Virus record (IMG/VR): IMGVR_UViG_3300009183_006007
Location: 1 to 64,000 of that record
DNA length: 64,000 nucleotides
From: a virus
Strand: one strand, 5' to 3'
In this document: one piece after another, positions 2,518 to 62,640 of the stretch
How positions within the stretch are numbered: position 1 is the first letter of the stretch
Layout of the letters: every line of letters starts with the position of its first letter
The notes under the pieces: generated by a model
The model's input: only the letters and a program-made list of their open reading frames with translations
What the model was told of the DNA's origin: nothing
The model's database searches: none
Program-made: the position numbers and the translations under genes

Positions 2518-2841
2518 ATGAGAGATCGTGCCTGGAGAAGATATGTCGAAGAACGTGTAGTTATTAGAAGACTACATTGGTATAGTAGTAGTGTCACTTG
2601 GAGTTGGAGAGGATTTGAAGATGTTAATAAAATATGTCATCAACATCCAAAATTTAATAGTAGTATCGGAACACAGATAAACTTTAGATTCAAGACACAC
2701 ACAACAACAAAATATGATAGTAGGTATAAAACAAAATACTCACCAAATAGAGGACCAAGATATTGGCGTGATGGTTTTAAAACTAGAGAAAACGACAAAA
2801 AAATATTCTTAAAAATATTAAAAGAAAATGGACTTAAATAG
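2518..2841 (+). CDS. Basic hypothetical protein
   Basis: ORF behind a TAnnTTTG element. Confidence 0.6.
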   Translation: MRDRAWRRYVEERVVIRRLHWYSSSVTWSWRGFEDVNKICHQHPKFNSSIGTQINFRFKTHTTTKYDSRYKTKYSPNRGPRYWRDGFKTRENDKKIFLKILKENGLK

Positions 2842-3373
2842 TTTAATACCTGATAAATTCAGACCTTTAGTTAATCCGAACTGGGTTATTAAAGGTAAAT
2901 TTCTTATGTTTAAGAAGTATGAAAATATACCTATTTGTTTTATCGAAGATGATATTGTTTATATTTTCTTAGACGCTAAGATTTCAAAACAGGTAATATT
3001 ATTAACTAAACATATTGTTGATCAAAATATTGAATTTTACTTTACTAGTCCGACTTTATCAAATCCAAAGGGTGTAGATGAAGATGATTATAAAGATTTA
3101 ATAATCAGACATTATTTATTATCATTTGTAAATAAGTTATTTTATAACGGATTCAAAAATATCGATTTTGACTTAATTAGAAATATGGTTTTGTGGTGTG
3201 AGAAAGAAGATTGTTATGAATTAATTAAAGATAATTATGATGATATACTAAAAGATGTTTCACGTAAACACTATGATTACTATGCTAATAAGGAATTTTA
3301 TGATTATGAAATTGATATCAGAGAGGAATTTCAAACTTTATATCGAGAAATACAGATAAATAAAATTCTTTAA
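2828..3373 (+). CDS. Hypothetical protein with C-terminal R-x3-I-x2-IL tag
   Basis: Ends YREIQINKIL. Confidence 0.7.
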   Translation: MDLNSLIPDKFRPLVNPNWVIKGKFLMFKKYENIPICFIEDDIVYIFLDAKISKQVILLTKHIVDQNIEFYFTSPTLSNPKGVDEDDYKDLIIRHYLLSFVNKLFYNGFKNIDFDLIRNMVLWCEKEDCYELIKDNYDDILKDVSRKHYDYYANKEFYDYEIDIREEFQTLYREIQINKIL

Positions 3374-3377
3374 TCCA

Positions 3378-3407
3378 TTCAGAACAAAAATACACACTTT
3401 CAGAACA
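3378..3407 (+). promoter_or_regulatory. Candidate LytTR-type operator: TTCAGAACA-N12-TTCAGAACA
   Basis: Perfect 9-bp direct repeats at 3378 and 3399 (21-bp period) upstream of the secreted-protein pair. Confidence 0.5.
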
Positions 3408-3545
3408 TTTTTATAAATAAAAAAATTGATATTAACATTAGTGTTTGCAATGCTAATTGGTTAACTACATATGCTCATTTGTGTGAATTTTTCAAAACTT
3501 AGTATATTTTTCTAAATATATACAGCAAATTAAAAATGTATATTT

Positions 3546-5000
3546 ATGAAAACAATCTTATCTTTATTTTTCGTTATTTTATCATTTGGTCTTTTAGCAC
3601 AAGGTGTTGCTATTAATACTGATGGTAGTAACCCGGACGCATCCGCTATTCTGGATGTCAAATCAAATTCTAAAGGTGTTTTAATACCTAGAATGACACT
3701 TTCCGAAAGATCATCAATCTCAACACCAGCAAGTGGTTTACTTGTATATCAAACTAATGGAACAAGTGGTTTTTACTTCTATGATGGAAGTGGATGGGTT
3801 AGATTAGCAACCGGTTCAGAAGTAGACCAAACCGTTTCTTTAACAGGAGGTACAGGTATTTCAGTTTCTGGAACTTACCCTAACTTTACTATTGTTAACT
3901 CAAGTCCATCAAGTGGTGGTACTTTAACAAGTGTAACCGCTGGTACTGGATTGTCAGGAGGAACTATAACTTCAACTGGGACTATTTCAATGCCTTCAGT
4001 TGGAACAGCTGGAACATATGGTTCAGCTACTCAAGTTCCTGTCCTAACTACAGATGCGCAAGGTAGAGTAACCGGTGTTACAAACACAACAATTTCTGGT
4101 GTTGTTCCTTCTGCTGGTAGTGGTGACTATATTCAAAATGGAACTTCTCAACAAACAACCGCAAATTATAATATAGATGGAAACGGAACATTAGGTGGTG
4201 ATATCAATGTTAATGGTTCCGATATTAATGGACCAGGTATAAGTGGTGGAACAAGTGGTATCTTAAGAATCAATTCAAACACAGATGTTAGAGTTGCCTT
4301 AGATAAAGACGCTAATGGTTCTCAAAGTTTTGATATTGCTCCTAATGGTGGGTCAACTGCAGTCTTTTCAGTAACTGAGGCGGGAAATGTCTCTACAGAT
4401 GGTTATGTGAGAATGAAAGAATCAGGAACAACTCCAACATTTTATACGGCTTTACAAAGTGGTGACTTAACAGGAAATTTAACACTAACTTTACCAATAA
4501 CTGCAGGTGCTTCAGGTCAATATTTAAAAACCGATGGAACTGGAGTAACTTCTTGGAGTACTTTAACTCAAAGTTCTTCAACTACTTATCAAACTGCCGC
4601 TCTTGTACCAACAACCACAACATCATCGGTTATTACAGGTTTGACAACAACTTTTACAGCTGACGCTAATCACCTTTATTATATATCAACAACAGGATGT
4701 GTTGTTGACGCTTCTGCCACAACAAATAGAAATGTCAACTCACAAGTTGGTATTTTTGTCGATGGTGTTGTATTAGCCGCGGGAACTCAAGTGGCTTGTG
4801 CTCAAAATTTAGGAACAATATCTTTATGGACTTATGGTAATTGGTCAATAAATCAGGTTATATCACTTACTGCGGGGTCACATACAATAGATGTTAGAGC
4901 AAACAGAAGGACTGATTCTAATATTGATAATCCTACAGTTGGTGGGGCATCAGGAACTGTTTGTCAAGGACAATTAACTGTTATGGTTATTTCTAAATAA
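3546..5000 (+). CDS. Signal-peptide, Gly/Thr/Ser-rich Bacteroidota-type surface or fibre-like protein
   Basis: Sec signal [19 protein letters not shown]; [31 protein letters not shown] module; fibre-like repeats ([22 protein letters not shown]). Confidence 0.7.
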
Positions 5001-5014
5001 AATAATAAGAAAAT

Positions 5015-6484: not shown

Positions 6485-8011
6485 ATGAACTATATTCAAA
6501 AATATAATGAGTGGGAGAATATTTCAGAAGCTACTTTAGATGATACTAAAGAGTTAGTTGATTATGATATATCAAGAAAGGGTAGAGTTAAAATTAACTT
6601 ACTTGGTATTAGTGAGAATATAAAGTTAACTACATGTAGTTCAGTTCCCGCTGACAATGAGTTTGTAATTCAAATTAGACCTAGTTCTTTTAGATTAATT
6701 GAATTCTCAAAATTTATTGAGTTGTATAAAATAGAAGACATGAATAATATATTTGTTTATGAAACAACTTCTACTAAATATCCATATGCTGTTGTTTTAA
6801 AAGGAACAAAAACAACTATGGTTAGACAATCTAATAGGGTTGGTGGTTCTGCCAGAGGTAACTATTTTAGAGAAACCGCTTTTATAATAACACTTGCTAT
6901 TAGACTTTGGGAAAATAAAGGAGTTAAAATTGATATTTATTCCAATAGAGGAAAAATCGAAATGAATTTTGCTAAAGGAGTTGCAACTATGTCTAAGAAG
7001 GAAAGAGCTGAATTTAGAAATCAATATGATGAGTTTGTTCATGATAAGAAAATATATGATGCTATGGTTACTCAAATAGATTCTTTGATTCAATATCTTG
7101 GTGTTTCGATTTTTAATATTAAATCGGTGGTTAAGAACTCAGTAGATTTACTTATTAATAGAATAGCTAATGATTTATTAGATGATGAAGAAGACTTACA
7201 TAGTGATATTGTTAAAAGTCAACCTCAAAATATAGCTGATTTTAATACCTTTGAAATTCCTAAAGGTGTAACCTTATCAAAATGGAATCCAAGTGATATC
7301 TGGATTTTATATAAAGACGCCGATTGGACTTTAATCGAACCAAAAGGATATGATGATAATGAAATAGAGAGTCTTGAAGAATTAAATGTTTACTTACATA
7401 ATTGTATTGTAAATAAAGAAGGTATAGTTGGTGTTTCACTTAAACAACAAATAACTAATGCTGGTGGTTTATATGAAATAAATTTAGATGAGAATAGAAA
7501 GTTCTCACACGATTATAAAGGATATTATGTTAAAAACACTATAAAGTCTTCTAAGATTAAATTCTCATATGAGAAACTTGGTGGTGTAATCGGTGGTGGT
7601 GAAATAGATGTTAGAACATTTGACACTGATACTAAATCTCCAATATCTGCTGAGGTTAAAGGTTCTACAGCTTCTCAACATATGAGTGGTAAAGCCGGTT
7701 CTTATATAAAGTTTGTTATGCCTGTTGATAAATATAAAGTATTAGAATTTATCAGAAAGAATAATGTGGATGATATTAAGGAATTTGTAGAAAATAACTA
7801 TACATTCACTAAATCAGATTTGAAAGTTATTTTTGAAAAAGACTTAGAAAGTCCAAAAAATGGTCAAAGTAACTCTAGAATGCAAGCTATTATATTTACT
7901 GATTGGTTAGAAAGTTTATCTAAAAAAACTAGAAATGAAGTAGTTTCTGGTATAATTAGATATGCAAAGTCAGAATCTAATTGGTCAGCTCCTCACTTAT
8001 TGTTAAAATAA
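6485..8011 (+). CDS. Hypothetical protein with N-terminal capsid-targeting-like tag; possible PD-(D/E)xK nuclease fold
   Basis: Starts MNYIQKYNEW; KWNPSDIW...GVSLKQ. Confidence 0.55.
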   Translation: MNYIQKYNEWENISEATLDDTKELVDYDISRKGRVKINLLGISENIKLTTCSSVPADNEFVIQIRPSSFRLIEFSKFIELYKIEDMNNIFVYETTSTKYPYAVVLKGTKTTMVRQSNRVGGSARGNYFRETAFIITLAIRLWENKGVKIDIYSNRGKIEMNFAKGVATMSKKERAEFRNQYDEFVHDKKIYDAMVTQIDSLIQYLGVSIFNIKSVVKNSVDLLINRIANDLLDDEEDLHSDIVKSQPQNIADFNTFEIPKGVTLSKWNPSDIWILYKDADWTLIEPKGYDDNEIESLEELNVYLHNCIVNKEGIVGVSLKQQITNAGGLYEINLDENRKFSHDYKGYYVKNTIKSSKIKFSYEKLGGVIGGGEIDVRTFDTDTKSPISAEVKGSTASQHMSGKAGSYIKFVMPVDKYKVLEFIRKNNVDDIKEFVENNYTFTKSDLKVIFEKDLESPKNGQSNSRMQAIIFTDWLESLSKKTRNEVVSGIIRYAKSESNWSAPHLLLK

Positions 8012-8035
8012 ACTTTATTTCACTTTGTTATATAA
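8010..8035 (+). promoter_or_regulatory. Putative middle promoter AAACTT-N15-TATAA
   Basis: Recurrent bipartite motif. Confidence 0.55.
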
Positions 8036-8040
8036 TTAAC

Positions 8041-8403
8041 ATGGCAAAGAAAATGAAATCACCTACAACTACAACATCAAGTAATGGTACATTAACAACC
8101 AGTAATAGTGGTGCTACATTAACAACAAGTTATAACGGTAATATAAACTATGTTACAACTGGATATTCATCTATTTCAACAATATATCATATTTTAGGAG
8201 AAGACTTTGAGACTAGTAATTATTTAGATGGAACAACTGCTGTTATGATATCCACTTTAAATGTTTTAGGAAGACCATTCTATGAAGAATTGAAAAAGAA
8301 TAAGATATCTTTTCCACAAGAAATGGATGAATTTATTCAACAAAGACTTAAAGTTTTAGAAAGAGATCTTAAAATAGAATCTATCATAGAAAACAATTCA
8401 TAA
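8041..8403 (+). CDS. Hypothetical protein with C-terminal tag (start likely 8041, not 7981)
   Basis: ATG follows promoter motif; ends ERDLKIESIIENNS. Confidence 0.65.
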   Translation: MAKKMKSPTTTTSSNGTLTTSNSGATLTTSYNGNINYVTTGYSSISTIYHILGEDFETSNYLDGTTAVMISTLNVLGRPFYEELKKNKISFPQEMDEFIQQRLKVLERDLKIESIIENNS

Positions 8404-10417: not shown

Positions 10418-10606
10418 TTGGATAACAAGGATATATATAAGAAGATATTAGAAGCTTCTAATATCATTGCTCAATCAAGTAGAAGGTCTTCAGCTAATTA
10501 TATGGTAACATCACCTGATGTTGCTGATATGATACAAGATATTTATAATCAAAAAAAGTCTCGTTGGAGAAAAGAAAAGATTAAAAAACTATTTCCTGAT
10601 GAGTAA
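10418..10606 (+). CDS. Mini-protein: major-capsid-like segment plus C-terminal tag
   Basis: KILEASNIIAQSSRRSSANYMVTSPDVA; ends WRKEKIKKLFPDE; TTG start. Confidence 0.6.
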   Translation: MDNKDIYKKILEASNIIAQSSRRSSANYMVTSPDVADMIQDIYNQKKSRWRKEKIKKLFPDE

Positions 10607-10751
10607 GATAATTCTTAAGGGTGTTTTACAAACATTTGATAACAAACACAATGGTAGAATCTATTCAGAAGAAATCTTTACAAAGGCATATAAAGAGAGT
10701 GTTAGAAAACTTATAAGAAAGAAGAAAATTAGAAAATTATTCGATGAGTAA
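10599..10751 (+). CDS. Unlisted 50-aa mini-protein: prohead-protease-like segment plus C-terminal tag
   Basis: Own translation MSKIILKGVLQTFDNKHNGRIYSEEIFTKAYKESVRKLIRKKKIRKLFDE; overlaps both neighbours. Confidence 0.7.
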   Translation: MSKIILKGVLQTFDNKHNGRIYSEEIFTKAYKESVRKLIRKKKIRKLFDE

Positions 10752-11367
10752 ATATTTAGAAGGTATAACAAAAGATATGATTGAATCACAAGGTTATCTT
10801 TATGATGATATGAGTCCTATGGTTATTGACATGGAAGTGATTGATAATTCAGATAAAAATGCTACAAGAATGATAATCAAAGATAAATCTGGTAAAGAAA
10901 AATCAATTGATGGTGAAGATAACATTATAAGTTTTATAGATGAAATTAAATCAAGATACAAACAACTAAAATATGATAAAACTTATTTGAATATGGCTAC
11001 AGAGTGGGCTAAACTCTCACATTGTAGTAGAAAACAAGTAGGTGCTTTAATAGTTAAGAATGGTATGATTATATCTGATGGATATAATGGAACACCAACT
11101 GGATTTGATAACTCTTGTGAGAACGGAGATGGTGATACTAATTGGTATGTTATTCACGGAGAAGCCAATGCTATTCTGAAATGTGCTAAACACGGGCATT
11201 CTTGTGAGGGTGGTACTTTATACCAAACACATTCGCCTTGTAGAGATTGTTCTAAACTTATCTTACAATCAGGAATAAAAAGATTAGTATATAAAGAAGA
11301 TTACAAAGATACTTCAGGATTAGATTTTCTAAGAGAGGCTAAAATTGAAATAGTAAAATATGGATAA
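10744..11367 (+). CDS. dCMP deaminase with N-terminal extension
   Basis: SHCSRKQVGA, GYNGTP, HGEANAI, SPCRDC. Confidence 0.9.
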   Translation: MSKYLEGITKDMIESQGYLYDDMSPMVIDMEVIDNSDKNATRMIIKDKSGKEKSIDGEDNIISFIDEIKSRYKQLKYDKTYLNMATEWAKLSHCSRKQVGALIVKNGMIISDGYNGTPTGFDNSCENGDGDTNWYVIHGEANAILKCAKHGHSCEGGTLYQTHSPCRDCSKLILQSGIKRLVYKEDYKDTSGLDFLREAKIEIVKYG

Positions 11368-12043
11368 TGAACTAAAATTAATGGTAGAAGATTTTAAGGT
11401 TGAACAAATTTATAAAAACTCACTATTCTCTGTAAAAAGTATCTGTGAGCATTTAGAAATTTGGGATAATTATTCAGATGAGGAAAAGTTCAAGTTAGAA
11501 AACTTTACAGCCAGAGACTCCAAATTAAATAAGAACTTTACTTATAAAGGTAAGTATGACTCAAATTTAACATATGGTGAGATAACAAAAAAAGGAGTTC
11601 AAACAATAATTGAAAAGATAACTAAATATAAAGATATAAAAGAATCTGACGTATTTGCTGATATTGGAAGTGGTTGTGGTAAGTTGGTTTTACAAATGGC
11701 AGTTAAAACAAAATTCAGAAATTTAGTTGGTGTTGAGATTGTTGATATCAGAAATAAATATGCAAAATCAATATTAGAACAAATATCACCAATTGATGAT
11801 AAAAAGATTTTTTTTATCAATAAAGATGTAAGAGATTTTGACTTATCTATATGTAAAGTAATATTCACCAATAATGTACTTTTTGATTCTAACCTAAATA
11901 ATTTAATTTATGATAGACTACCTGAAGGTTGTCATATTATATCAATGTCACCATTTAACAAATGTAAGTTCTTAAAAGACACCTTTGATGTTGAAGTATC
12001 ATGGTCAGATAAAAAACATAAAATTTATTATTATATAAAATGA
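11360..12043 (+). CDS. DOT1-like class I SAM methyltransferase
   Basis: TYGEIT, FADIGSGCGK, GVEI, IFTNN. Confidence 0.7.
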   Translation: MDNELKLMVEDFKVEQIYKNSLFSVKSICEHLEIWDNYSDEEKFKLENFTARDSKLNKNFTYKGKYDSNLTYGEITKKGVQTIIEKITKYKDIKESDVFADIGSGCGKLVLQMAVKTKFRNLVGVEIVDIRNKYAKSILEQISPIDDKKIFFINKDVRDFDLSICKVIFTNNVLFDSNLNNLIYDRLPEGCHIISMSPFNKCKFLKDTFDVEVSWSDKKHKIYYYIK

Positions 12044-12534
12044 TATTTAGAGAATTTTTACAAAATATTAAAACACAATTAGTTAATGTTGAACCTAAAT
12101 CAATATCCGTTTACCCAATTGGTGAAAATAACCTAGAAGGTATTAAAGTTTTAATTGATAATTGTTATAGAATGGGTAGTGAAAATAACAACATTAGAGT
12201 TGCAACAATGGACCCGTCATTGTGGTTAGGTCAATTCTTAGATAAACATTGGAATAAAATTTCTTATGTAACATCATTACCAACCTTTATTATAATGAAA
12301 GTTGAAGATAATAAAATAGTTTCAAAACAATATAATACAGAAATAAGAGAGTTTGAATCTGAAGACTTAATTAATGATTTTTTTGAAAGAGGAAGATGGA
12401 AAACACTTGTTATATTCTCTATTATAAAACACGTTGACTTAGTTAGTCTAAGTTCAACATATCGAGTAAGATATGCTGATATAACAGAGAAGTATGAAGA
12501 AAGAGATAATATAATAAACGAAATACTTAAATAA
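12040..12534 (+). CDS. Hypothetical protein with C-terminal tag
   Basis: Ends ERDNIINEILK. Confidence 0.65.
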   Translation: MIFREFLQNIKTQLVNVEPKSISVYPIGENNLEGIKVLIDNCYRMGSENNNIRVATMDPSLWLGQFLDKHWNKISYVTSLPTFIIMKVEDNKIVSKQYNTEIREFESEDLINDFFERGRWKTLVIFSIIKHVDLVSLSSTYRVRYADITEKYEERDNIINEILK

Positions 12535-13387: not shown

Positions 13388-13417
13388 AAAAAAGAGAGTC
13401 AAATGACTCTCTTTTTT
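13388..13417. terminator. Bidirectional intrinsic terminator
   Basis: AAAAAAGAGAGTC-AAAT-GACTCTCTTTTTT between convergent genes. Confidence 0.85.
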
Positions 13418-13670
13418 AGTTTAATACTTGTTTTAACTTCCAATCTCTTTCTTTAGAATTATCTTCAAATTGAAGTTCCTCTTCAGCAAATATAATAGGA
13501 ATTAAATGTTGCTTTATTTGATATTGACTTGGATATAAATCTAACTCAACTCTATAAACATTTAAGTCTTGTGTTGATTCCTTACTAGTAACTATACTAC
13601 CTACTCGATACTTAAGATCATCATAAGCTCTTGTTACAATAACAACCCGATCACCCTTTGAGAACTTTAA
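13416..13670 (-). CDS. KOW/SH3-like small protein with C-terminal tag; start uncertain
   Basis: KFSKGDRVVI...ERDWKLKQVLN; no ATG at the expected start. Confidence 0.45.
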   Translation of the reverse strand, partial: LKFSKGDRVVIVTRAYDDLKYRVGSIVTSKESTQDLNVYRVELDLYPSQYQIKQHLIPIIFAEEELQFEDNSKERDWKLKQVLN

Positions 13671-14577
13671 ATTGTTGTCTGTATCTGATAACTGCCAGGT
13701 CTTTCGCTTTCGCTTCAATTTCCGTGTCAAAGTCAAGACCAAATGTTTTAATTTCTTCATAAATATAATCTGCATGTGCTGTTTGTTTTCCTGAATTATC
13801 TTCTAATGTTTTTGGTGAACTCATATGAGTCATTGGTTGAATATCACCCCAAGTAGAACAAGCAAGTTTTAATGCCTCTTCTTGTGAGATATCTTTTGGT
13901 CCATAATTATGATGATGAAAATCATGAGTTATAGGTATTCCAATTTTCTTATAAATTAAATCATATAAAATCTTTGTTGAATATTGATTAGGACCATCGT
14001 CATTTTCAACAACCAATCTTCTACGACAAGACTCACTTAAATTAAAAAATTGTTTACAGAATCTGTCAGCAGCTTCTTCTCTTGTTGGTTTGGTGGTATT
14101 AACATGTATGTTAATTGGATAATAACGGGTCTGATCTAAACACATTAAATCCATTATTTGAGCATGTTTATCTAATTCATCAATAGCATTTTTAACAACA
14201 ATTGGATTTTCACTAGCTGGAATACAGAAGTGTGTTGGGTGAAAAGAAAGTCTTATTTTTTTAGACTTTGAATAATCACCTATTGACTTTAACTTATCTG
14301 ATATAAGTTTGAAGTTTGGTAAATCTTCTAATTTATAAAAACCAATACATGGAAACATGTCACTTGACATTCTATAAACAAAAATATTATTTTTTACATT
14401 CCATTGAAGTATTTTTTCAAGATCATTTATATTCTGTATGGCTAACTCAGATACATATCCAAGACCTTTAGTCTCAAATGTCTTTTTAGTCATTCCTCTA
14501 TTGACTGTTATTTGGTCTTTTTTCTTTTTACCCTCGTTTATCGAGATATTAATACAACAATATCCTATATTACCCAT
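13651..14577 (-). CDS. uvsE: UV damage endonuclease
   Basis: IGYCCIN, YRMSS, RLSFHP, INIH, LVVENDD, DFHHH, AHADY, EAKAKD. Confidence 0.92.
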   Translation of the reverse strand: MGNIGYCCINISINEGKKKKDQITVNRGMTKKTFETKGLGYVSELAIQNINDLEKILQWNVKNNIFVYRMSSDMFPCIGFYKLEDLPNFKLISDKLKSIGDYSKSKKIRLSFHPTHFCIPASENPIVVKNAIDELDKHAQIMDLMCLDQTRYYPINIHVNTTKPTREEAADRFCKQFFNLSESCRRRLVVENDDGPNQYSTKILYDLIYKKIGIPITHDFHHHNYGPKDISQEEALKLACSTWGDIQPMTHMSSPKTLEDNSGKQTAHADYIYEEIKTFGLDFDTEIEAKAKDLAVIRYRQQFKVLKG

Positions 14578-18754: not shown

Positions 18755-20647
18755 TTACTTAACTTCTTCATAAGATGTATCTTCAACGTCTCCACCGCCA
18801 TTACCATTGTCAGTGCTTTCGTTAGAACTTTGTGGTTCTTCTTGAGATTGTTGATATAATCTTGTACTAATTGTTTGCCAAGTTTCATTTAACTTATTAG
18901 ATGTTTCATCAATTGATGTTACATCTTTTTCTGAGTGAGCCTTTTTCAAAGCATCTAAGTCAGTATTAAGTAAAGACTTATCTTCATCAGTCAACTTATC
19001 AGAAAATTCTTTGATTTGTTTTTCTGTTTGGAAGATAAGATTATCAGCCATGTTTACTTTGTCAACCAATTCTCTTTCGAGACGATCAGACTCAGCATTT
19101 AACTCAGCCTCAGCTTTCATTTTTTCAATTTCCTCTTTAGATAGTTGAGAACCACCTTCAATTCGGATTTTGTTTTCTTTACCACTAGCTTTATCTTTAG
19201 CAGATACAGATAGAATACCATTAGCATCAATATCTAATGTTACTTCTACTTGAGGAATACCTCTCGGAGCTGGCATGATACCATCAAGATGGAATCTACC
19301 TAACGAACGGTTATCCTTAGCCATTGGTCTTTCACCTTGTAGAACGTGAATTTCTACAGATGGTTGATTGTCAGAAGCTGTTGAGAACGTTTCAGACTTA
19401 CGGGTCGGAATTGTTGTATTAGCTTCAATCAACTTAGTCATCACACTACCCATAGTCTCAATACCTAAAGATAGAGGTGTTACATCAAGAAGAAGAACAT
19501 CAGTAATACCACCACTCAAAACAGCTCCTTGAATAGCCGCTCCTAAAGCAACAACTTCATCAGGGTTAACAGATTTGTTTGGTTTCTTACCTAAGTACTT
19601 CTCAATTGCTTCTTGAATAGAAGGTATTCTTGTAGAACCACCAACAAGAATTACTTCATCAATGTCAGATGGTTTAAGTCCTGCATTCTTCAAAGCACTT
19701 TTAGCACAAGCGATAGCTCTATCAACAAGACTTGAGGTCATTTGATCAAACTTAGCTTTAGTTAATTGTTTAACGAAGTGTAAAGGAATACCATCTTTAG
19801 CAGTGATGTATGGAAGATTGATTTCTGATTGAGAAGTTGAAGATAATTCAATTTTCGCTTTCTCAGCAGCTTCTTTCAAACGTTGAAGACCCATAGCATC
19901 TTTTGAAAGATCCATTCCGTGTTCAGATTTGAATTCATCAACCATCCAAGTAATGATTGCGTTATCAAAGTCGTCACCACCTAAGTGAGTATCACCATCA
20001 GTAGATTTAACTTCAAATACACCATCACCAATTTCTAGAACTGATACATCATGAGTACCACCACCACAATCGAATACTAAGATTTTAGAATCTGTATTCT
20101 TTTTATCTAACCCGTAAGCTAGAGCTGCCGCAGTTGGCTCATTAATGATACGCTCAACTTTCAAACCAGCGATTTCACCAGCTTCAATAGTTGCAGTTCT
20201 TTCAGCGTCCCCGAAGTAAGCAGGAACCGTAATAACAGCTCTTTTTACTTCATATCCTAAATAGTCTTCAGCAGTTTTCTTCATTTTCTGAAGAATCATT
20301 GCTGAGATTTCTTGTGGAGTGAAAGTTCTATCATCGATTTTAACACCTGGTACATTTTTACCAGCTTTAACAACTTCATAAGGAACTCTCGTTACCTCAT
20401 CAGTGCAAGCTGAAAAATCTTTACCAATGAACCTCTTAATAGAGTAAACAGTATTTTTTGGATTGGTAACTGCTTGTCTTTTAGCGGGGTCTCCAATTTT
20501 TCTATCTTTGTCGGTAAATCCGACAACTGAAGGAGTTGTTCTTTTCCCTTCAGAGTTGGTGATTACGATTGGTTCACCACCTTCAACTACAGCTACACAT
20601 GAGTTTGTAGTTCCTAAGTCAATTCCAATAATTACGTCTTTTGCCAT
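18755..20647 (-). CDS. dnaK: Chaperone DnaK
   Basis: [31 protein letters not shown]. Confidence 0.97.
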
Positions 20648-22917: not shown

Positions 22918-23334
22918 TTATTTACCTAGAAGTTTATCTAAGTTAGCATTTCTATTAATAATCTTATCTCCACCGATAAGTCTTTTAATATGGTCAACTG
23001 AAAACTTATATGAGTTTCCGTTTGTGGATATAGCAATTACAGGATACTTTCTATTCTTAGTTTTGATGTCTGTAATTTCATAAACACCATTTGTTCCATG
23101 AAATTGCATACCTATAATATTCTGAGTGAATCCTAATCTTTTACAAACAGATTCGAATATCTTATCAACTCTTTCATTTTTCTCAGTAGTTACTACTGAC
23201 ATTGTAGTAGTATATTTTGCAGGATTATAACTAATAGTACCAAATTCTATTTTAACATTTTCATCTTTCTCAATTTGAGCCAATGCTTTTCTAATTTTGT
23301 CTTGTACAGATTTAATTTTAATATCAGTTATCAT
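22918..23334 (-). CDS. Hypothetical protein with C-terminal tag
   Basis: Ends NRNANLDKLLGK; TATATTTG upstream. Confidence 0.7.
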   Translation of the reverse strand: MITDIKIKSVQDKIRKALAQIEKDENVKIEFGTISYNPAKYTTTMSVVTTEKNERVDKIFESVCKRLGFTQNIIGMQFHGTNGVYEITDIKTKNRKYPVIAISTNGNSYKFSVDHIKRLIGGDKIINRNANLDKLLGK

Positions 23335-24643: not shown

Positions 24644-25129
24644 ATGACAATCAAAATTTATCCAGAAGATATAGTAAGAATGTGTTTATGGGATAACTAT
24701 GTATATTACATCGTTGGATCAGAGAAAGAAGCAGAAAAAATTCTGAAAGAAAATGCTGAAATGGAAATTACAGAAAGAGATGCACTTGTAATAGGTTTAT
24801 TGAAAATTATTGAGACAGATAATCTTATTCATAAATTTAATACTTATGTAATGGAATTTTTAACAAACAAATCTATAAAACATAATGACTATTTACTAGT
24901 TAGAAAAAAAACATTTGACTTATCAATTGATAAGTTTGTAGATAAATTCCCAGATTATTGGGAACCAAATAGCTACTGGTCTAATTCTTTAAAAGACTTA
25001 GTAGATTATGTAGAAGTAATGAAAGTAGATATCGAAAAGATTGAGATTCATAAAGTTGTAGATAAAAACGTAACTTATGAGTTTTATAACTCAAATAATA
25101 TAAAAAAACTTTTAAAATTTAATTATTAA
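24644..25129 (+). CDS. Hypothetical protein
   Basis: 161-aa ORF. Confidence 0.65.
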   Translation: MTIKIYPEDIVRMCLWDNYVYYIVGSEKEAEKILKENAEMEITERDALVIGLLKIIETDNLIHKFNTYVMEFLTNKSIKHNDYLLVRKKTFDLSIDKFVDKFPDYWEPNSYWSNSLKDLVDYVEVMKVDIEKIEIHKVVDKNVTYEFYNSNNIKKLLKFNY

Positions 25130-25131: not shown

Positions 25132-25596
25132 ATGGAGGAAAACACAAACCCTGAAGAAACTATTGAAAACACAATAGATCCTATTGAGGATCTAAAGTTG
25201 AAATTATCAGAATCTGAAGATAAGTATGTTAGACTTTTCGCAGAGTTTGATAATTATAAAAAGAGAGTTCAAAAAGAAAAAGAAGATATCAAAAACAATA
25301 CAAAGGTATCTATGATAACATCTATTCTTGATATGGATAATGATATTGCTATTGCTATCAAAAATATCAAAGATGAAGTAACCAGAGAAGGTGTTGAACT
25401 GATTGCTCAAAAGTTAGAAAGATTCTTAAAGAGTCAAGGTATCGAAAGTATTCAAACTGAAACTTATGATGATGAGTTACACGAAGTTATCAGTGTAGTA
25501 CCTACTGGCAAGACTGAGGTTATTGATGTCGTTAGTAAAGGTTATATGTTAAATGGTAAACCTTTCAGACACCCAAAAATTGTTATTGGTAAATAA
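25132..25596 (+). CDS. grpE: Nucleotide exchange factor GrpE
   Basis: RLFAEFDNYKKR, LHEVI, KGYMLNGKPFR. Confidence 0.92.
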   Translation: MEENTNPEETIENTIDPIEDLKLKLSESEDKYVRLFAEFDNYKKRVQKEKEDIKNNTKVSMITSILDMDNDIAIAIKNIKDEVTREGVELIAQKLERFLKSQGIESIQTETYDDELHEVISVVPTGKTEVIDVVSKGYMLNGKPFRHPKIVIGK

Positions 25597-26168
25597 TGAA
25601 AACTAAAAGCTTATTAGAAATTTATAAAGATGTTGACTATAAAAAAACCATCATTGATACATTGTGTCAAGGTATAGGTAGTCAACATATTTATTCTTTT
25701 AAGGCTTTATTAGAGTACGTGATAGATAAAAAATATCATCTATTCGACAGAGAAGAATTCAAAGGTTCTTTATACTCAGATGAAGATGAAACTTTAGATT
25801 TAGTTTTACCAGCAGTTAGGAGAGTTTTTGGAAAAGTTTTCATTGACCAACCACCTCTATTTAAAAGTGGAGGTCCTTTTACAGCTAGATATAAATTATT
25901 CACTATGTATTTCAATGCTGATGAATTTGTTGATTATCTAATTGATATGTTTATTAAATCAAAAGATTGTCTTCAACACTTTGAACATATTGATAGAACT
26001 GCTGAGACATTATCTTTAATAGTTGATAACTATGTTGCTGATTTAGTTCAACGAGTTCTAAGTATTGAAGATCACCAAGAAGCAATTAATAATATTTTGA
26101 AGCAAATTAAAAGAGAAGAAACTATTGAACAAGTACTTGATGATGAAGAATCAAATGAACTATTATGA
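25596..26168 (+). CDS. Hypothetical protein with capsid-like LPAVRRVF motif and C-terminal tag
   Basis: LVLPAVRRVFGK; KREETIEQVL near the C-terminus. Confidence 0.6.
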   Translation: MKTKSLLEIYKDVDYKKTIIDTLCQGIGSQHIYSFKALLEYVIDKKYHLFDREEFKGSLYSDEDETLDLVLPAVRRVFGKVFIDQPPLFKSGGPFTARYKLFTMYFNADEFVDYLIDMFIKSKDCLQHFEHIDRTAETLSLIVDNYVADLVQRVLSIEDHQEAINNILKQIKREETIEQVLDDEESNELL

Positions 26169-26479
26169 TTGATTGGTATGTTGAAATATCCGACTCAGCT
26201 CCAGAAGGATTCAAAGGAGATAGGTATTTAGGAAATGTCATAGATACAGCCTCTCCTTGTATGGATTACTTTTGTAATCGACTGACTGAGATGAAAGATT
26301 GGAAACTAGAAGATGCTAATAATATCTTTAGGGAAATAATAGAAGAACTTCCAATTATGTCAGCCAAAATTTATAACAATGAATTTAGAATAGATTATAA
26401 TAGATGGGTAACTATAAAACTGACAGAAACACCCATACAAATATATAGAGAATCAAAAATAAGACAAATATTAGAATAA
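26165..26479 (+). CDS. Hypothetical protein with C-terminal tag
   Basis: Ends [11 protein letters not shown]. Confidence 0.65.
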
Positions 26480-26480: not shown

Positions 26481-27548
26481 ATGAGTAAAGATTATTACAA
26501 AGTACTAGGCGTAGATAAAAACGCTTCAGATGATGAAATAAAAAAAGCATATAGAAAAAAAGCTATGGAATTTCATCCAGACAAAAATCCGGATAATCCA
26601 GAAGCAGAGTCTAAATTTAAAGAAGCTGCTGAAGCATATGATACATTATCATCACCGGATAAAAAAGCTAGTTATGATAGATACGGAACAACTGGTAACC
26701 CATTTGGTGGAGGTGGAAATCCATTTGGTGGAGGTGGATTTAATATGGAAGATATTTTTTCACAATTTGGTGATGTATTTGGAAATTCATTTAATCAAAG
26801 ATATGGTGGTGGACAAAGACCACAAAGTAAAGGATCTAATCTAAGAATAAAAGTTAGTTTAACTATTGATGAGATTCTAAAAGGAGCAGTTAAGAAATTA
26901 AAATATAAGAGACAAGATAAATGTAATTCTTGTAATGGTGTAGGTGGAACTGATCCAAGAACTTGTATTCCTTGTAATGGTTCTGGTCAAAGAACAATTG
27001 TTCAAAACACACCATTCGGTCAAATCAGACAAGTCGCTACTTGTCCAGATTGTTCTGGTAGTGGTAAAGTTGTTGCTGTGAAATGTAACTCTTGTAGAGG
27101 TGAAGGAGTAAGTATTAAAGAACAAGTAGTTGATGTTGAAATCCCCAAAGGAGTTTCTAATGGAATGCAATTAACAATGCAGGGATTTGGTAACTTTATT
27201 AAAAATGGATCGGCTGGTGACTTACAAATTATAATAGAAGAAATAATTGACCACTCTTTTAGAAGAGAAAATAATAATATAGTTGTGGAAAAAACTATAT
27301 CTGTTATAGATGCTATTATTGGATCAAATATTAAAGTCTCAACACCACATGGTGAGATACCAATTGCTATTGAGCCAGGAACAGAACACGGAAAGGTTTA
27401 TAGAGTATCAGGTAAAGGAATTCCAGATATTAATTATGGACTTGGTGATCTTTATGTTAAAATCAGTATTAAAATTCCAAAGAAAATTGAGTTGGATGAA
27501 AAATACACTCTTGAGAAATTAAAATCTTCGAAAAACTTTTCAGTATAA
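26481..27548 (+). CDS. dnaJ: Chaperone DnaJ
   Basis: J domain HPD, G/F region, four CxxCxGxG. Confidence 0.96.
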
Positions 27549-30680: not shown

Positions 30681-30872
30681 TTAAATAAGTTTGTTTAATT
30701 GTGATTCTCTATGACATTCTTTACAAACTCTTACATTCATGAACCCATTTATCCCAAGTACGGTTCTTGGGACTTGTATAATACTGGATTCTTTTGTTGG
30801 TGTTTCATTCTTACATAAATGACAATCAACCACCATTATCCATTCTTCCATTGGATTTAACCGACGGTTCAT
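30681..30872 (-). CDS. Small Zn-finger protein with C-terminal tag
   Basis: CHLC...CKEC; ends HRESQLNKLI. Confidence 0.65.
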   Translation of the reverse strand: MNRRLNPMEEWIMVVDCHLCKNETPTKESSIIQVPRTVLGINGFMNVRVCKECHRESQLNKLI

Positions 30873-34546: not shown

Positions 34547-34549
34547 GAT

Positions 34550-34840: not shown

Positions 34841-34870
34841 AAAAGAGAGACCAATTGGTCTCTCTTTTTT
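34839..34870. terminator. Bidirectional terminator
   Basis: AAAAAAGAGAGACC-AATT-GGTCTCTCTTTTTT. Confidence 0.85.
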
Positions 34871-35042: not shown

Positions 35043-35066
35043 ATTTTTTAGTTTTTGTTTGTCTTA

Positions 35067-35108
35067 CAAATATAAGGAATCTTTTTGAATAACAATATTA
35101 AATATATA
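35067..35108. promoter_or_regulatory. Back-to-back TATATTTG (minus) and AATATATA (plus)
   Basis: 35067-74 and 35101-08. Confidence 0.6.
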
Positions 35109-35112
35109 CAAT

Positions 35113-38484: not shown

Positions 38485-39172
38485 ACTATTCGAATCAGTT
38501 ATTACTGAATTTGAATTTCCTACAGAATTGGATATTCAAGAACTATTCTATGATCTAACAGATGAAGATACAAACTCTAAATGTAAATTATATTCATCAG
38601 GTTATCAGTTTTTTACAACAGATAATATAACAAGATCTATTAGAAGTCAATTATTCTCCGATATGAGTTTTGAAGAAAACTGGATAAATAAAGAATGTGA
38701 AGATACTCAAGATACTTGGAAAAATATGTTTATTGATTTATCTAAACCTGTATCAAATGATATGATTAAATTGGCTGTTAGAAATTATAATGATGTTTAT
38801 TTTTTAGAGGTTGAAGAATCAAAAAATAGTGCTGGTAAAAGTTATCTTGAAAGATTACAAGAAAATATATTAAATGATATTATTCCGGCTTATCCAATTA
38901 TTTATTTAAATCTAGGTCTTTTTCATCCAGATAAATTACCAGTAGTTGTAGAGTGTTTACAAAGATTATATGAAGTAACTGGGTTTAGACCAACTTCATC
39001 AGTTTGGGCTGAAGATTATGTAGATGAGGAAACAGGAGATCTTGTTACTTTTTATGGAGCTGACTTACAACTTTATAAAGTAAATGATATAGAATATCAG
39101 AATCTATGTAAGATTGTTGGAAGAATAAATCCAAATAATAAAACACAAGAAGTAACTAAACATTTTTTATGA
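38462..39172 (+). CDS. Hypothetical protein with N-terminal tag
   Basis: MKYLKTYKLFES. Confidence 0.7.
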   Translation: MKYLKTYKLFESVITEFEFPTELDIQELFYDLTDEDTNSKCKLYSSGYQFFTTDNITRSIRSQLFSDMSFEENWINKECEDTQDTWKNMFIDLSKPVSNDMIKLAVRNYNDVYFLEVEESKNSAGKSYLERLQENILNDIIPAYPIIYLNLGLFHPDKLPVVVECLQRLYEVTGFRPTSSVWAEDYVDEETGDLVTFYGADLQLYKVNDIEYQNLCKIVGRINPNNKTQEVTKHFL

Positions 39173-44475: not shown

Positions 44476-45074
44476 TGAGATTAAGTAGTCAGGGTAGTCA
44501 GTTCGTTTTTAATCTTCCAAGTGATTTTCTCAAACCAGAGGTACTTGCAACATATACTCCAATTTTAGAAAAGAATTGGGTTCAATATGAGAATGTTATA
44601 GATTATATTAATTCGACAATTAAGTCGGTTAATTTCCCAGGTATCTCATTTGATATGCCTAAACAAACATTAATCAGAGGTAAGGAAAGACAATACAAAC
44701 CAGCAAAGAATGTTCAGGATATCACAACTACACACGATTTAACAATTACTTTTAGATCAGTAGATTCTGATTTAAATTATTGGTTAGTTTTTGATATTAT
44801 TAATAAACATTATTTAGATGTTGAAAACTCATTTGTATTTCCATTTACAATTACTTGTGTTGATATACATAGAGATGGTATTTATGTTATTAGATTTTAT
44901 GAAATTATATTAAAATCATTATCTGAGAATAACTTTAATTACTCTCAACAAAAGGTGAGCTCTAAAGAATTCACAATGACATTTCATTTTAACTTCTATG
45001 ATATTGAATTCTTACTTAATAGAAGTAAGATATTGGAATTGGGCACATTACCAATAATTATTCAGAAGCTCTAA
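44475..45074 (+). CDS. Tail-tube/baseplate-fold protein (gp19/gp54-like)
   Basis: IKSVNFPGIS, LTITFRSVD..LNYW, FTMTFHF pattern. Confidence 0.5.
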   Translation: MRLSSQGSQFVFNLPSDFLKPEVLATYTPILEKNWVQYENVIDYINSTIKSVNFPGISFDMPKQTLIRGKERQYKPAKNVQDITTTHDLTITFRSVDSDLNYWLVFDIINKHYLDVENSFVFPFTITCVDIHRDGIYVIRFYEIILKSLSENNFNYSQQKVSSKEFTMTFHFNFYDIEFLLNRSKILELGTLPIIIQKL

Positions 45075-45282
45075 ATATTTTATTAATAGAGTTCTTTCTT
45101 CTTTTATTTCTTGATTCTAATCCTAAGCTTTTTAGAATTTCCATGTCAATAGATTTTGATAATTCATCTGATAACATTTTACTCAGTTCATCAACAACAT
45201 CAAGTCCATAATGTTCACTTAATTTATCTGCTTCCGAATTTGAGTAGATTTCACCACCGGATCCTGTTTTAATTTGATTCAT
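45058..45282 (-). CDS. Mini-protein: major-capsid-like segment plus C-terminal tag
   Basis: HYGLDVVDELSKMLSDELSKSIDMEIL; ends RRKNSINKIFRASE. Confidence 0.65.
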   Translation of the reverse strand: MNQIKTGSGGEIYSNSEADKLSEHYGLDVVDELSKMLSDELSKSIDMEILKSLGLESRNKRRKNSINKIFRASE

Positions 45283-54535: not shown

Positions 54536-55180
54536 TTATAATATTTTTCTTAAATCAAATTTTTTTGTATTAAAATTACTATTACTATGTAATCTATGTA
54601 ATACTAGTTCCGAAGGAACATTTATAAACTTTTTACCTTTTCTCATTAGTCTTAACCAGAAATCATAATCTTCAGGATCAATATCTCTCCACCCATTTAT
54701 ATCTAAGGCATCTTGTTTTTTAAATACGACACTACTATTAGCTATCTGATTAAGACCTTTCATTGAAAGATGTTCTATTTGAGTTGGATGAGTTGATAGA
54801 TTTGGTCTACCAATTATATTACCCTCCTCATTAATATAAGATATTAGTGTTCCAACAACATCATATTTATCAAAATATGGAATCTGACTTTCCAATTTAT
54901 TAGACAACCAAATATCATCATCATCTTGAATTGCTACCCAATCATACTTAGCCTCTTCAATCATTTTATTTAGTGTCTTGTATTTACCTTTATCATCACC
55001 AAAATCAAAAACTCTTATTCTCGGATCATTATACCTATAAACAATTCCTTTTGAACTATCTGTAGTTCCATTAAATCCAATTAATAATTCAAAATCTTTA
55101 AATGATTGGTTTAAAACAGATTCAATTGCTAGTGAAATATATTTCTCACCATTATAGGTCGCTAGTAGTATTGATATCAT
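54536..55180 (-). CDS. GT2 glycosyltransferase
   Basis: LLATYNGEKY, QDDDD, EDYDFWLR. Confidence 0.9.
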   Translation of the reverse strand: MISILLATYNGEKYISLAIESVLNQSFKDFELLIGFNGTTDSSKGIVYRYNDPRIRVFDFGDDKGKYKTLNKMIEEAKYDWVAIQDDDDIWLSNKLESQIPYFDKYDVVGTLISYINEEGNIIGRPNLSTHPTQIEHLSMKGLNQIANSSVVFKKQDALDINGWRDIDPEDYDFWLRLMRKGKKFINVPSELVLHRLHSNSNFNTKKFDLRKIL

Positions 55181-60105: not shown

Positions 60106-60116
60106 ATTTATTATAT

Positions 60117-60152
60117 AAAAAAAAAGAGAGAAGTTAACCTTCTCTCTTTTTT
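60117..60152 (-). terminator. Terminator after clpC, overlapping an AACTT..TATATAA promoter motif for the glycan cluster
   Basis: AAAAAGAGAGAAG-TTAAC-CTTCTCTCTTTTT. Confidence 0.75.
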
Positions 60153-60154
60153 AA

Positions 60155-62284
60155 TTACTCAGAATCTTTCTTTTTTCTTGTAGCTTTCTTCTTTGGTGGA
60201 GAAGTAATTACAACAAACATATTATCATCTTCTTTGTTATAATCCAATAATAATTTAGAATTTTTCTCAGGATTCTGTTGAATGATTTCCTCTGTTAGAA
60301 CATCTTCAACATATTTCTGAATAGCTCTCTTCAAAGGTCTTGCTCCATATTCTGGATCAAACCCTTGAGTAGCGATATATTCAGATGCTCCTTCTGTGAT
60401 TTCTAATTCAAATTCCATCTTTTTAACTCTTTCTACCAAGCCACCCAACTCAATATCAATGATTTTGTTGATATCTTCTTTGTTTAAAGAGTTAAACATT
60501 ACAACATCATCAATACGATTTAAGAACTCAGGTGCAAATTTCTTCTTCAATTCTTTTTCAATTACTGAATTAGTTTCTTCGGTTGATTTGCTTTCTTTAT
60601 TCTTAGTAGAGAATCCAACACCTGTTCCGAATTCTTTCAACTGACGTGAACCAGTATTAGAAGTCATAATGATAATTGTATTCTTAAAGTTTACTTTTCT
60701 ACCAAGTGAATCTGTTAACTGACCATCATCAAGTACTTGAAGTAACAAGTTGAATACTTCTGGATGAGCTTTCTCAATCTCATCTAAAAGAATTACTGAG
60801 TAAGGTTTACGTCTAACTTTTTCAGTTAACTGACCACCTTCATCGTGTCCAACATATCCTGGAGGAGCTCCAATCAAACGAGATACTGCGAATTTCTCCA
60901 TATATTCAGACATATCAATTCTAATTAAAGAATCTTCTGACTCGAATAAGTATCTAGCAAGAATCTTAGCCAATTGAGTTTTACCAACTCCTGTAGGTCC
61001 CAAGAACATAAATGAACCAATTGGTTTACTTGGATCTTTCAAACCAACACGACCTCTTTGAATAGCTTTTACAATCTTCTTAACAGCTTCATCTTGACCA
61101 ATAACTTTACCAATGATACTTTCTTGCATTTTGGCTAATTTACTAGTTTCGTTTAGAGATACTTTTTGAAGAGGAATGCCAGTCATCATCGAAACAACTT
61201 CAGCAACATTATCTTCTGTAACCGTTTGTTTGTTGTTAGAACATTCTTCTTCCCATTTCTTTCTCTCTTTTTCCAAAGACTCGTTAAGTTGTCTTTCAAC
61301 GTCTCTTAACTTAGCAGCTTCTTCATATTTCTGAGAACGAATAACTCCATTTTTCTTTTCTTTAATCTCAACTATCTTATTTTCAATATCAGTGATTTCT
61401 TTCGGAACAACGATATTAGAAATGTGAACACGAGATCCAGCTTCGTCTAAAGCATCAATAGCCTTGTCTGGTAAGAATCTATCAGCAACATATCTGTCAG
61501 TTAAGTCAACACAAGCCTTGATAGCTTCTTCTGTGTAAATCACATTATGGTGTGATTCATACTTATCTTTAATGTTGTTGATAATTTGGAATGTTTCATC
61601 TGGTGATGCAGGTTCAACAATAACTTTTTGAAAACGTCTTTCCAAAGCTCCATCCTTTTCAATATGCTTACGATATTCATCTAAAGTAGTAGCACCAATG
61701 ATTTGGATTTCTCCACGAGCTAAAGCCGGTTTGAACATATTAGAAGCATCTAAAGATCCTGAAGCACCACCTGCACCGATAATTGTATGAATTTCATCGA
61801 TGAAAAGTATCACATCTGGTTCTTTTTCAAGTTCAGCCATTAAAGCTTTAATTCTTTCTTCAAATTGACCACGATATTTAGTTCCAGCAACCATAGAAGC
61901 CAAATCCAACATAACGATTCTTTTATTAAAAAGAATTCTACTAACTTTTCTTTGAATGATTCTCAATGCTAATCCTTCAGCGATTGAAGATTTACCAACA
62001 CCAGGTTCACCAATTAAAATAGGGTTATTCTTTTTTCTACGAGATAGAATTTGAGATACTCTTTCGATTTCTTTTTCTCTACCTACGATAGGGTCAAGAC
62101 GACCTTCTTCCCCCATTTTGGTTAAGTCTCGACTATAAGTGTCTAAAACCGGAGTTTTAGATTTAGAATCAGACTTTTTAGAAGAACCAAAAGATGAATC
62201 ATCTTCATCATCTTCAATAGCGGATCTAATATCAGGTATTGTGTAATTTCCCTCTTCAATTTTTTTATTATCCATAGTATTCAT
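60155..62284 (-). CDS. clpC: ClpC-type AAA+ unfoldase lacking the N-terminal domain
   Basis: Two Walker A motifs ([16 protein letters not shown]), UVR helix [14 protein letters not shown] loop. Confidence 0.9.
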
Positions 62285-62295
62285 TATTTTATTAT

Positions 62296-62640
62296 TTAAT
62301 TTATATTATTTTTATTGTCATTGTTTAGTAAATCATCTATAATTTCATCACGTCTTTCAGAAATATTTGATGGGTTTAATAAATCACATCTTAAAGATAT
62401 ATTCATTCTGGATGAATTGCAATCAATAGATTTTATTTGAGTTCCTTTTCCATCGAATTCTTTTCCTATTAAATCGAATTTAGTTTTATTCTCATACATA
62501 TTAAAAAAGAAATCAGAATATGTTGGGTATTTCTTCAAATCGATTTCTATATTAATTGTTGCGTGTGCCATAACAGATAATTGAACAACACAATCTTTAA
62601 TAAAATAAATCTCATTTTCTATTTTTACCCAATCACTCAT
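62296..62640 (-). CDS. Hypothetical protein with C-terminal tag
   Basis: RRDEIIDDLL near the C-terminus. Confidence 0.65.
   Translation of the reverse strand: MSDWVKIENEIYFIKDCVVQLSVMAHATINIEIDLKKYPTYSDFFFNMYENKTKFDLIGKEFDGKGTQIKSIDCNSSRMNISLRCDLLNPSNISERRDEIIDDLLNNDNKNNIN

Follow-up and report, generated by a model that had tools for sequence, protein, structure and literature searches.

In bacteriophage T4, late proteins such as the internal proteins IPI-III and Alt carry an N-terminal capsid targeting sequence (CTS) that is cleaved by the prohead protease. Here we examine a different peptide, a C-terminal tag with the pattern R-x3-[IL]-x2-[ILV]-[LIFV], in a 64,000-nucleotide stretch of viral DNA (IMG/VR record IMGVR_UViG_3300009183_006007, positions 1 to 64,000; hereafter the window), where an initial annotation made from the sequence alone had listed it on 13 small proteins. 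Like the CTS, the tag is a short peptide on unrelated proteins of a T4-type phage that would be handled by one machine as a class; unlike the CTS, it is C-terminal, belongs to non-late genes and is nearly exclusive of the CTS-like leader found in this phage clade. We put the probability at roughly 60% that the tag is a portable helix by which one putative partner recognises rapidly evolving early accessory proteins, as an address or a docking site.

Several other described systems share features with the tag. Bacterial microcompartment (BMC) encapsulation peptides and encapsulin cargo-loading peptides are also short amphipathic helices at either terminus of unrelated proteins, and they dock through a small hydrophobic face on one shell protein. 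In contrast, the carriers of the tag are small orphan proteins and not enzymes, and the BMC shell family PF00936 was absent from the three tag-rich genomes searched (LR745206.1, LR756504.1 and a 476-kb relative), so a microcompartment encapsulation peptide was rejected; we know of no compartment in these phages. The degrons and tethers of AAA+ proteases (ssrA, the MuA C-terminus, SspB XB and the SpoIIAB tail for ClpCP) are short C-terminal peptides that give many proteins to one unfoldase, and the phage studied here encodes both ClpC and ClpP. Such degrons are unstructured, lie at the very end of the protein and are mostly non-polar or basic, whereas the tag is helical, is found at varying distances from the end and in some cases internally, and combines an invariant Arg with an acidic position. 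Poxvirus ankyrin/PRANC (F-box-like) proteins and the cellulosomal dockerin-cohesin system each offer a library of variable bodies with a common C-terminal docking module for one hub, but there the module is a folded domain of 40-70 residues with Skp1 or cohesin as its hub, while the tag is a helix of 9-13 residues with a putative hub. PCNA-interacting peptide (PIP) boxes and the gp45 clamp-binding tails of T4/RB69 are C-terminal and have the same h-x-x-h-h spacing of hydrophobic residues; the tag differs from them in having no Gln and no aromatic pair and in placing an Arg four residues upstream. We know of no precedent for a clamp with over 100 clients. The literature yielded no description of the tag, nor is it mentioned in the paper that treats LR745206.1 among the megaphages together with Mar_Mega_1 (PMC9723777).

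A C-terminal tag is enriched among unrelated small proteins

The window comprises the first 64 kb of one 75,196-bp contig with a G+C content of 28%. The contig is syntenic with positions 408-491 kb of the uncultured phage LR745206.1 (634,780 bp), which has homologues for 61 of its 107 open reading frames (ORFs); a second relative is the 476-kb IMG/VR genome, which is 97% complete. The pattern was found at the end of all 13 listed ORFs, with identical spacing, as the initial annotation had stated; the tags end 0-9 residues before the stop codon. That annotation designated each tag by the low coordinate of its ORF and not by the position of the motif; both are given in Table 1. The carriers are small and make up 13 of the 107 contig ORFs, or about one protein in eight. 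Enrichment was assessed on the ORFs of the whole contig by counting tags in the last 20 residues. Shuffling of whole proteins gave a mean of 0.51 C-terminal tags (maximum 4 in 2000 shuffles) and shuffling of the last 20 residues a mean of 0.87 (maximum 5 in 5000), compared with 13 observed. Internal copies numbered 3 compared with 7.6 expected, and no copy was present in the first 20 residues of any of the 107 ORFs. The check that had been proposed for the tag, enrichment at the C-terminus over internal and shuffled backgrounds, thus came out in its favour. The pattern was defined after the fact, and it recurs independently in the relatives LR745206.1 and LR756504.1. The claim that the N-terminal parts are unrelated also held: no BLAST paralogy was detected among the 13 proteins, and a Pfam scan of 10 of them, together with PHROG, revealed no family apart from capsid-fragment matches. 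The codons vary between the window copies of the tag.

Conservation of the tag as a peptide across the clade

LR745206.1 orthologues exist for eight of the tagged window proteins (34-62% identity), and a pattern-matching tag is kept in seven of the eight; no tag was detected in the LR745206.1 orthologue of the 25596-26168 protein. The 476-kb relative keeps the tag in all three orthologues within the locus that was fetched. Synonymous codon use in the LR745206.1 tags is that of the genome itself (AGA accounts for 72% of Arg codons in tags compared with 76%), with a slight surplus of A-ending codons at positions +7 and +8 (counted from the Arg at position 0). This genome-like codon use and the differing codons of the copies place the signal in the peptide and not in the DNA, and on these comparisons selection is judged to act on the tag as a peptide.

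Two families were aligned, that of the 2828-3373 protein (family A1, 23 sequences) and that of the 26165-26479 protein (family A2, 33 of 127 homologues). R173 and I175 are invariant in family A1, where the tag is conserved by residue class. The invariant residues of family A2 are Q92, I93, Y94, R95 and K98 (the Lys at +3), and the tag is among the most conserved segments of the protein. In both families the Arg is invariant, the hydrophobic positions exchange only I, L, F and V, and the x positions vary freely. Family A1 alternates between ...INKIL-stop and ...INIIGI-stop; Leu and Gly-Ile endings are therefore interchangeable.

The analysis was extended to the whole LR745206.1 genome (975 ORFs, predicted with the same simple ORF caller as for the contig). 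The original pattern occurs in the last 20 residues of 140 ORFs, with 87 internal copies, and the count rises to 173 tagged ORFs once Gly is also accepted at +8 (as in ...LGI-stop). The carriers span 41-246 aa, except for one 731-aa orphan and one chance match in a 503-aa ORF. The 221-aa ClpP fits the loose pattern through its family's own ...YGxIDxIL end and was likewise treated as a chance match, and two helicases and one RNA ligase have internal matches that fall within known domains. When the tags were stripped, a BLAST paralogue in the same genome was found for just nine of the 173 bodies, which extends the finding of unrelated N-terminal parts; a Pfam search of nine large tagged proteins gave no family.

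The LR745206.1 consensus is K-x3-R-[DEN]-x-K-[IL]-x-x-[IL]-L. Its logo shows K at -4, S/Q at -3, R at 0, D/E/N at +1, K at +3, I/L at +4, N/D/K at +5, I/L/V at +7 and L/I/F at +8, followed by 0-3 residues. Enrichment is seen for D/E/N at +1 and for K at +3 and -4, and neither -4 nor +3 admits an acidic residue. Among 112 C-terminal copies that fit the motif at every other position, 102 have Arg at position 0 and none has Lys, a preference not seen in internal matches. The distance from the end of the tag to the stop codon is 0-11 residues (mode 1-2), and the trailing residues are K, D, N or E. Full-consensus copies are also located 15-30 residues from N-termini or between domains (23 compared with ~6 expected, an estimate from residue frequencies), and a free C-terminus is therefore not strictly required.

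A second lineage, LR756504.1, uses a variant with rearranged charges, R-K-x-[KI]-I-x-[DEN]-L-[LI], which ends 68 of the 444 ORFs in 240 kb of this genome, mostly right at the stop codon. No tagged orthologue pair is common to the LR745206.1 and LR756504.1 lineages; the repertoire therefore turns over quickly. A pattern scan of IMG/VR revealed at least 118 loci. Among the matches listed, every multi-tag locus of at least 5 kb shares homologues with LR745206.1, and three multi-tag loci with almost no LR745206.1 homologues are 1.7-4.8 kb cut-outs of 85-172 kb contigs. Judged by gene content, the multi-tag loci among these matches are fragments of the LR745206.1 clade.

Tagged genes are not late genes

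In LR745206.1, 3 of the 173 tagged ORFs have the T4-late-like box AATATATA in the 40 nt upstream, compared with 163 of the 802 untagged ORFs (P = 8e-12). In the window, a box of this type is present within 45 nt upstream of none of the 13 tagged ORFs and of 19 of the 94 others, and none of the 13 has an N-terminal leader of the MK[YH]LK type; the initial annotation had reported both absences, and both were confirmed. The leader itself, MK[YH]LK.[YF] (..FE), resembles the T4 CTS and is carried by 71 of the 975 LR745206.1 ORFs, 30 of which (42%) are directly behind a late box. Leader and tag occurred on the same ORF in two cases compared with 12.6 expected (P = 1.5e-4). With its C-terminal position, a late box on 3 of 173 carriers and the leader on 2 of 173, the tag was rejected as a CTS of the T4 type. 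Tagged genes form tight same-strand arrays with a median gap of -4 nt, some with an upstream Bacteroidetes-type TAnnTTTG element, and their products are like those of other small ORFs in size, charge and hydrophobicity. Avoidance of the late box and of the leader shows that the tag is the mark of a class of accessory proteins that evolve fast and are not late. The pairing of tag and leader suggests two mutually exclusive addresses on a quarter of the phage proteome.

The leader is also present in the window between 14751 and 39172 (for example 33208-39172). One window ORF that starts with it (35948-36487; MKIKNYIQFIKES) encodes a 2H phosphoesterase matching the Acb1 family (E = 2e-9), which counters the cyclic oligonucleotide-based antiphage signalling system (CBASS); from its sequence, this leader-bearing Acb1-like enzyme may be a packaged counter-defence enzyme.

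The tag helix as a putative address

Structures of one protein from each aligned family were predicted with AlphaFold2 (AF2). The A1 protein (2828-3373) gave a predicted local distance difference test (pLDDT) score of 88 with a confident alpha/beta body, and its tag formed a separate last helix (residues 171-180, pLDDT ~85). In the A2 protein (26165-26479) the body scored 80-92, and the tag helix, which holds the five invariant residues of the family, was detached (residues 90-103, pLDDT 41-44). The topologies of the two bodies differ. Foldseek searches of the PDB with both models gave no match at E <= 0.001, and an ESM Atlas search with the tag region gave no usable match. Pro and Gly are depleted between -4 and +7, the amphipathic periodicity reaches back to about -9, and one face of the helix unites K-4, R0 and K+3 with the hydrophobic residues at +4, +7 and +8. 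The A2 tag is conserved but not packed in the model, the signature of a docking element, and as modelled it looks like one.

A clade-wide, peptide-selected marker of non-late genes on unrelated bodies is best explained, in our view, by docking. The tag would be a portable terminal helix of ~12-18 residues in which the basic ridge is followed by the small hydrophobic patch, and the phage would add it to a large, rapidly turning-over set of small early/middle accessory proteins. One common partner would bind, place or process all tagged proteins as a class, while each variable body would do a specific job, most likely in host take-over or counter-defence. The partner is probably phage-encoded or at least lineage-specific, because the flavours of the tag are lineage-specific and the tag was not found on host proteins in four Bacteroidota genomes. 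Mimicry of a host linear motif was rejected: in these four genomes the tag-plus-stop DNA pattern (strict motif) occurred at control level (82 versus 72), and the in-frame matches among 30 loci inspected were all in spurious ORFs of 9-83 codons from stop to stop. The initial annotation had likewise proposed a library of variable domains with a docking helix that binds one hub. This remains the best reading given the invariant Arg, the unrelated bodies, the non-late genes and the detached A2 helix; the specific hub that it named is a candidate only.

Several points weigh against an address read by one partner. No partner was identified, and binding to a single partner is inferred from sequence statistics alone. 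The A1 tag helix is modelled fairly confidently and could pack on its own body. The tag is not preceded by a Pro/Gly-rich linker and its amphipathic pattern extends further upstream, so it may be the end of a structural helix and not a free peptide; the exposure of its side chains is not readable from the AF2 models. A tag on more than 100 proteins could also work without a protein reader, for example through self-association, stability or charge.

Candidate readers and alternative explanations

Among the readers named, the phage ClpC-ClpP pair is the most concrete specific candidate. The initial annotation had pointed to a ClpC without its N-domain as the hub, and the window does encode a genuine ClpC, which has the M-domain and a VGF loop for ClpP docking but lacks the N-domain that normally takes adaptors and phospho-arginine; the Sphingobacterium ClpC used for comparison (850 aa) has this domain. 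N-domain-less ClpC and ClpP are both present in all three tag-rich records checked, and relatives encode 1-3 ClpP genes; the genomes in which the two co-occur are related and have many genes in common. In both the window and LR745206.1 the gene immediately upstream of clpC is tagged, despite just 34% identity between these orthologues, and the tag sits near the C-terminus of products of non-late genes. On the other side, another huge phage, LR756508.1 (484 kb, 38% G+C), encodes a 657-aa N-domain-less ClpC, yet none of 180 ORFs was tagged in 92 kb of this genome (1-50000 and 435058-476935). The clpC gene is apparently co-transcribed with non-late genes, so degradation would not be delayed. The tag is helical in periodicity, keeps its polar positions and also occurs at N-terminal and internal sites, unlike degrons of the ssrA type. 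The extreme C-terminal position, free carboxylate and non-polar last residues of such a degron do not match the tag, which has 0-11 residues to the stop codon, trailing K/D/N/E and internal and N-terminal copies. A single co-folding run without controls, in which the N-domain-less ClpC (71-row alignment) was paired with the 104-aa 26165-26479 protein (33-row alignment), gave ipSAE interface scores of 0.00 and 0.01, which speak neither way on binding. Taken together, the data neither support nor exclude ClpC as the hub, and we consider it doubtful.

If ClpC-ClpP did read the tag, for which we hold out a tentative possibility, the tagged proteins would be a substrate class (the tag then acting as a genome-wide degron that clears early proteins) or tethered clients. 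The role of ClpC adaptors, which the initial annotation had assigned to them, is unlikely for 140-173 proteins per genome, and a substrate class or tethered clients fit better. An adaptor of the MecA/McsB type was rejected, as no such family was found by Pfam on the 10 window and nine large LR745206.1 tagged proteins and the phage ClpC has no N-domain. At its most far-reaching, and this we offer as speculation, the phage would run a proteome-wide addressing system: an invariant-Arg helix of 9-13 residues on 14-18% of genes would deliver over 100 rapidly evolving early effectors to a single reader encoded by the phage, most concretely the N-domain-less ClpC-ClpP, the tag would be a virus-encoded class degron that erases the early programme, and the N-terminal leader would address a second, late set to the capsid. 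A reader that is a phage protease or scaffold would mean virus-encoded wholesale protein sorting or clearing, of which we know no case in phages. The genes of huge phages are mostly small orphans that offer no starting point for study. A tag found on one in every six to eight genes defines a functional class among such orphans, one that is non-late, fast-evolving and handled together. It also provides a simple experimental hook, since a reporter fusion could fish out the reader, and it could be put to use in Bacteroidota as a portable tag for docking or degradation.

Among explanations that need no reader, tagged proteins might dimerise or bundle through the helix. An amphipathic helix with basic and acidic positions beside a hydrophobic stripe in both lineage flavours would suit such self-association, which requires no co-evolving partner and works at either terminus; we nevertheless regard it as unlikely, as an interface of three hydrophobic positions in nine residues is very short, indiscriminate mixing of over 100 different proteins seems costly, and a strict Arg without Lys is more typical of a specific pocket. 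It is quite unlikely that the tag is an intrinsic structural or stability element that caps small proteins at the C-terminus and so protects them from host exoproteolysis or from surveillance for C-terminal degrons. The upstream amphipathic pattern without a linker, the confidently modelled A1 helix and the degradation-prone nature of small proteins would fit a partner-free cap; the invariant Arg on unrelated folds, the non-late restriction, the lineage flavours and the detached, low-confidence and maximally conserved A2 helix would be left unexplained. The AT-rich genome, the Lys/Ile/Asn-rich protein ends and the slight surplus of A-ending codons at +7 and +8 could point to chance, composition or a DNA/RNA-level signal at gene ends, but the composition-keeping C-terminal shuffles never exceeded 5 tags compared with 13 observed, codon use is genome-like, and orthologues conserve the tag with synonymous and within-class variation. 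This explanation is already refuted as far as sequence statistics allow.

Docking on another target was also considered. In three genomes grpE and dnaJ flank two tagged genes, and the basic ridge on one helix face might suit the phage Hsp70 system (DnaK/DnaJ/GrpE), a membrane or nucleic acid. The peptides that DnaK and DnaJ bind are extended and hydrophobic with basic flanks, and acidic residues are disfavoured; a helical tag with D/E at +1 is unlike such a client peptide, and for a membrane anchor the hydrophobic face is too small and its surroundings too acidic, which makes this group of targets very unlikely. The sliding clamp, one of the alternatives raised at the outset, is disfavoured because the phage family B DNA polymerase (PolB) carries a different aromatic tail of the T4 type: the PolB fragment ends in ...MDIFGGFK, which we take to be a T4/RB69-like clamp tail, while the tag, with its Arg at -4 to the first hydrophobic residue and aliphatic residues only, is neither a PIP box (Q-x-x-[ILM]-x-x-[FY]-[FY]) nor a T4-type aromatic tail. 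A MoxR-VWA reader was rejected as well, since MoxR (PF07726) was absent from LR745206.1 and the 476-kb relative and below cut-off in LR756504.1, and all VWA_2 matches were below cut-off.

Carriers, neighbouring genes and host

The positions of the tagged ORFs, of clpC and of the Hsp70 genes are given in Table 1. The start of the 13416-13775 ORF is uncertain, as it overlaps the 3' end of uvdE (13651-14577, minus strand) by 125 nt in another frame. The Hsp70 set is complete, and dnaJ has its own late box, located inside the 3' end of the preceding tagged gene.

Table 1. Tagged ORFs, clpC and Hsp70 genes in the window (+n, residues between tag and stop codon)
Feature	Coordinates	Strand	Details
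Tagged ORF, 181 aa (family A1)	2828..3373	+	REIQINKIL-stop; tag 3344-3370; LR745206.1 orthologue keeps tag
Tagged ORF, probable start 8041	7981..8403	+	RDLKIESII+4; tag 8362-8388; 45%-identity orthologue ends RDRKIDEVI+2
Tagged mini-ORF, 62 aa	10418..10606	+	RKEKIKKLF+3; tag 10568-10594
Tagged mini-ORF, 50 aa	10599..10751	+	RKKKIRKLF+2; tag 10716-10742
Tagged ORF, 164 aa	12040..12534	+	RDNIINEIL+1; tag 12502-12528; no Pfam/PHROG family
Tagged ORF	13416..13775	-	RDWKLKQVL+1; tag 13422-13448; then terminator-like hairpin
DnaK	18755..20647	-	
Tagged ORF, 138 aa	22918..23334	-	RNANLDKLL+2; tag 22927-22953; 62%-identity orthologue ends RNANIDKLI
GrpE	25132..25596		
Tagged ORF, 190 aa, between grpE and dnaJ	25596..26168	+	REETIEQVL+9; tag 26112-26138; orthologue in 476-kb relative REENINQIF+8
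Tagged ORF, 104 aa (family A2), between grpE and dnaJ	26165..26479	+	RESKIRQIL+1; tag 26447-26473
DnaJ	26481..27548		
Tagged ORF, 63 aa, CxxC...CxxC zinc-ribbon-like body	30681..30872	-	RESQLNKLI-stop; tag 30684-30710
Tagged ORF, 134 aa	30869..31273	-	RNILLNELV-stop; tag 30872-30898; orthologues end REVLLNELV (476-kb relative) and RDLIINDLF+6 (LR745206.1, 39% identity)
Tagged mini-ORF, 74 aa	45058..45282	-	RKNSINKIF+4; tag 45073-45099; orthologue keeps RKNSINKIF
N-domain-less ClpC, candidate hub	60155..62284	-	aligns to B. subtilis ClpC from residue 149; M-domain and GVGF (VGF) loop
Tagged ORF, 114 aa, directly upstream of clpC	62296..62640	-	RDEIIDDLL+9; tag 62326-62352; LR745206.1 orthologue (34% identity), likewise directly upstream of clpC, RENIINDIL+11

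Two of the carriers resemble capsid proteins. The body of the 10418-10606 protein is similar to a stretch inside the T4-type major capsid protein (Pfam Gp23, 26.3 bits with a cut-off of 24.4, model positions 222-260), and that of the 45058-45282 protein shows a weak resemblance (phrog_138, E = 0.0024). Small ORFs that look like inner pieces of the capsid protein are also present at 93266, 207176, 255010, 291407 and 554784 in LR745206.1, a genome with five partial paralogues of its 560-aa capsid protein; several members of the whole set, window ORFs included, are tagged. Near-tags were seen on two further window proteins. A 214-aa sugar-operon protein (54536-55180, minus strand) ends in KKFDLRKIL-stop, with Lys for Arg, and was not counted as tagged; a conserved 161-aa orphan directly upstream of grpE (24644-25129), with 66% identity to its LR745206.1 orthologue, ends in NSNNIKKLLKFNY, with Asn for Arg.

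The contig encodes a topoisomerase II large subunit, a flap endonuclease, NusG, a dCMP deaminase, UvdE, RNA ligase 1, a ribonucleotide reductase small subunit, a gp32-type single-stranded DNA-binding protein and a sugar-modification operon; on gene content it is a piece of the genome of a T4-related megaphage (giant phage). One window protein has a type IX secretion sorting domain, and the nearest cellular homologues of the phage ClpC are from Bacteroidota (70-74% identity over the best segment); together these features indicate that the host belongs to the Bacteroidota. A DOT1-like methyltransferase (Pfam DOT1, E = 2e-20), unusual in a phage, is encoded at 11360-12043 in the operon of NusG and the dCMP deaminase. 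The LR745206.1 PolB is apparently split between two genes, one for 513 N-terminal and one for 474 C-terminal residues, and the two pieces (130568-131992, minus strand, and 232803-234344, plus strand) lie ~100 kb apart.

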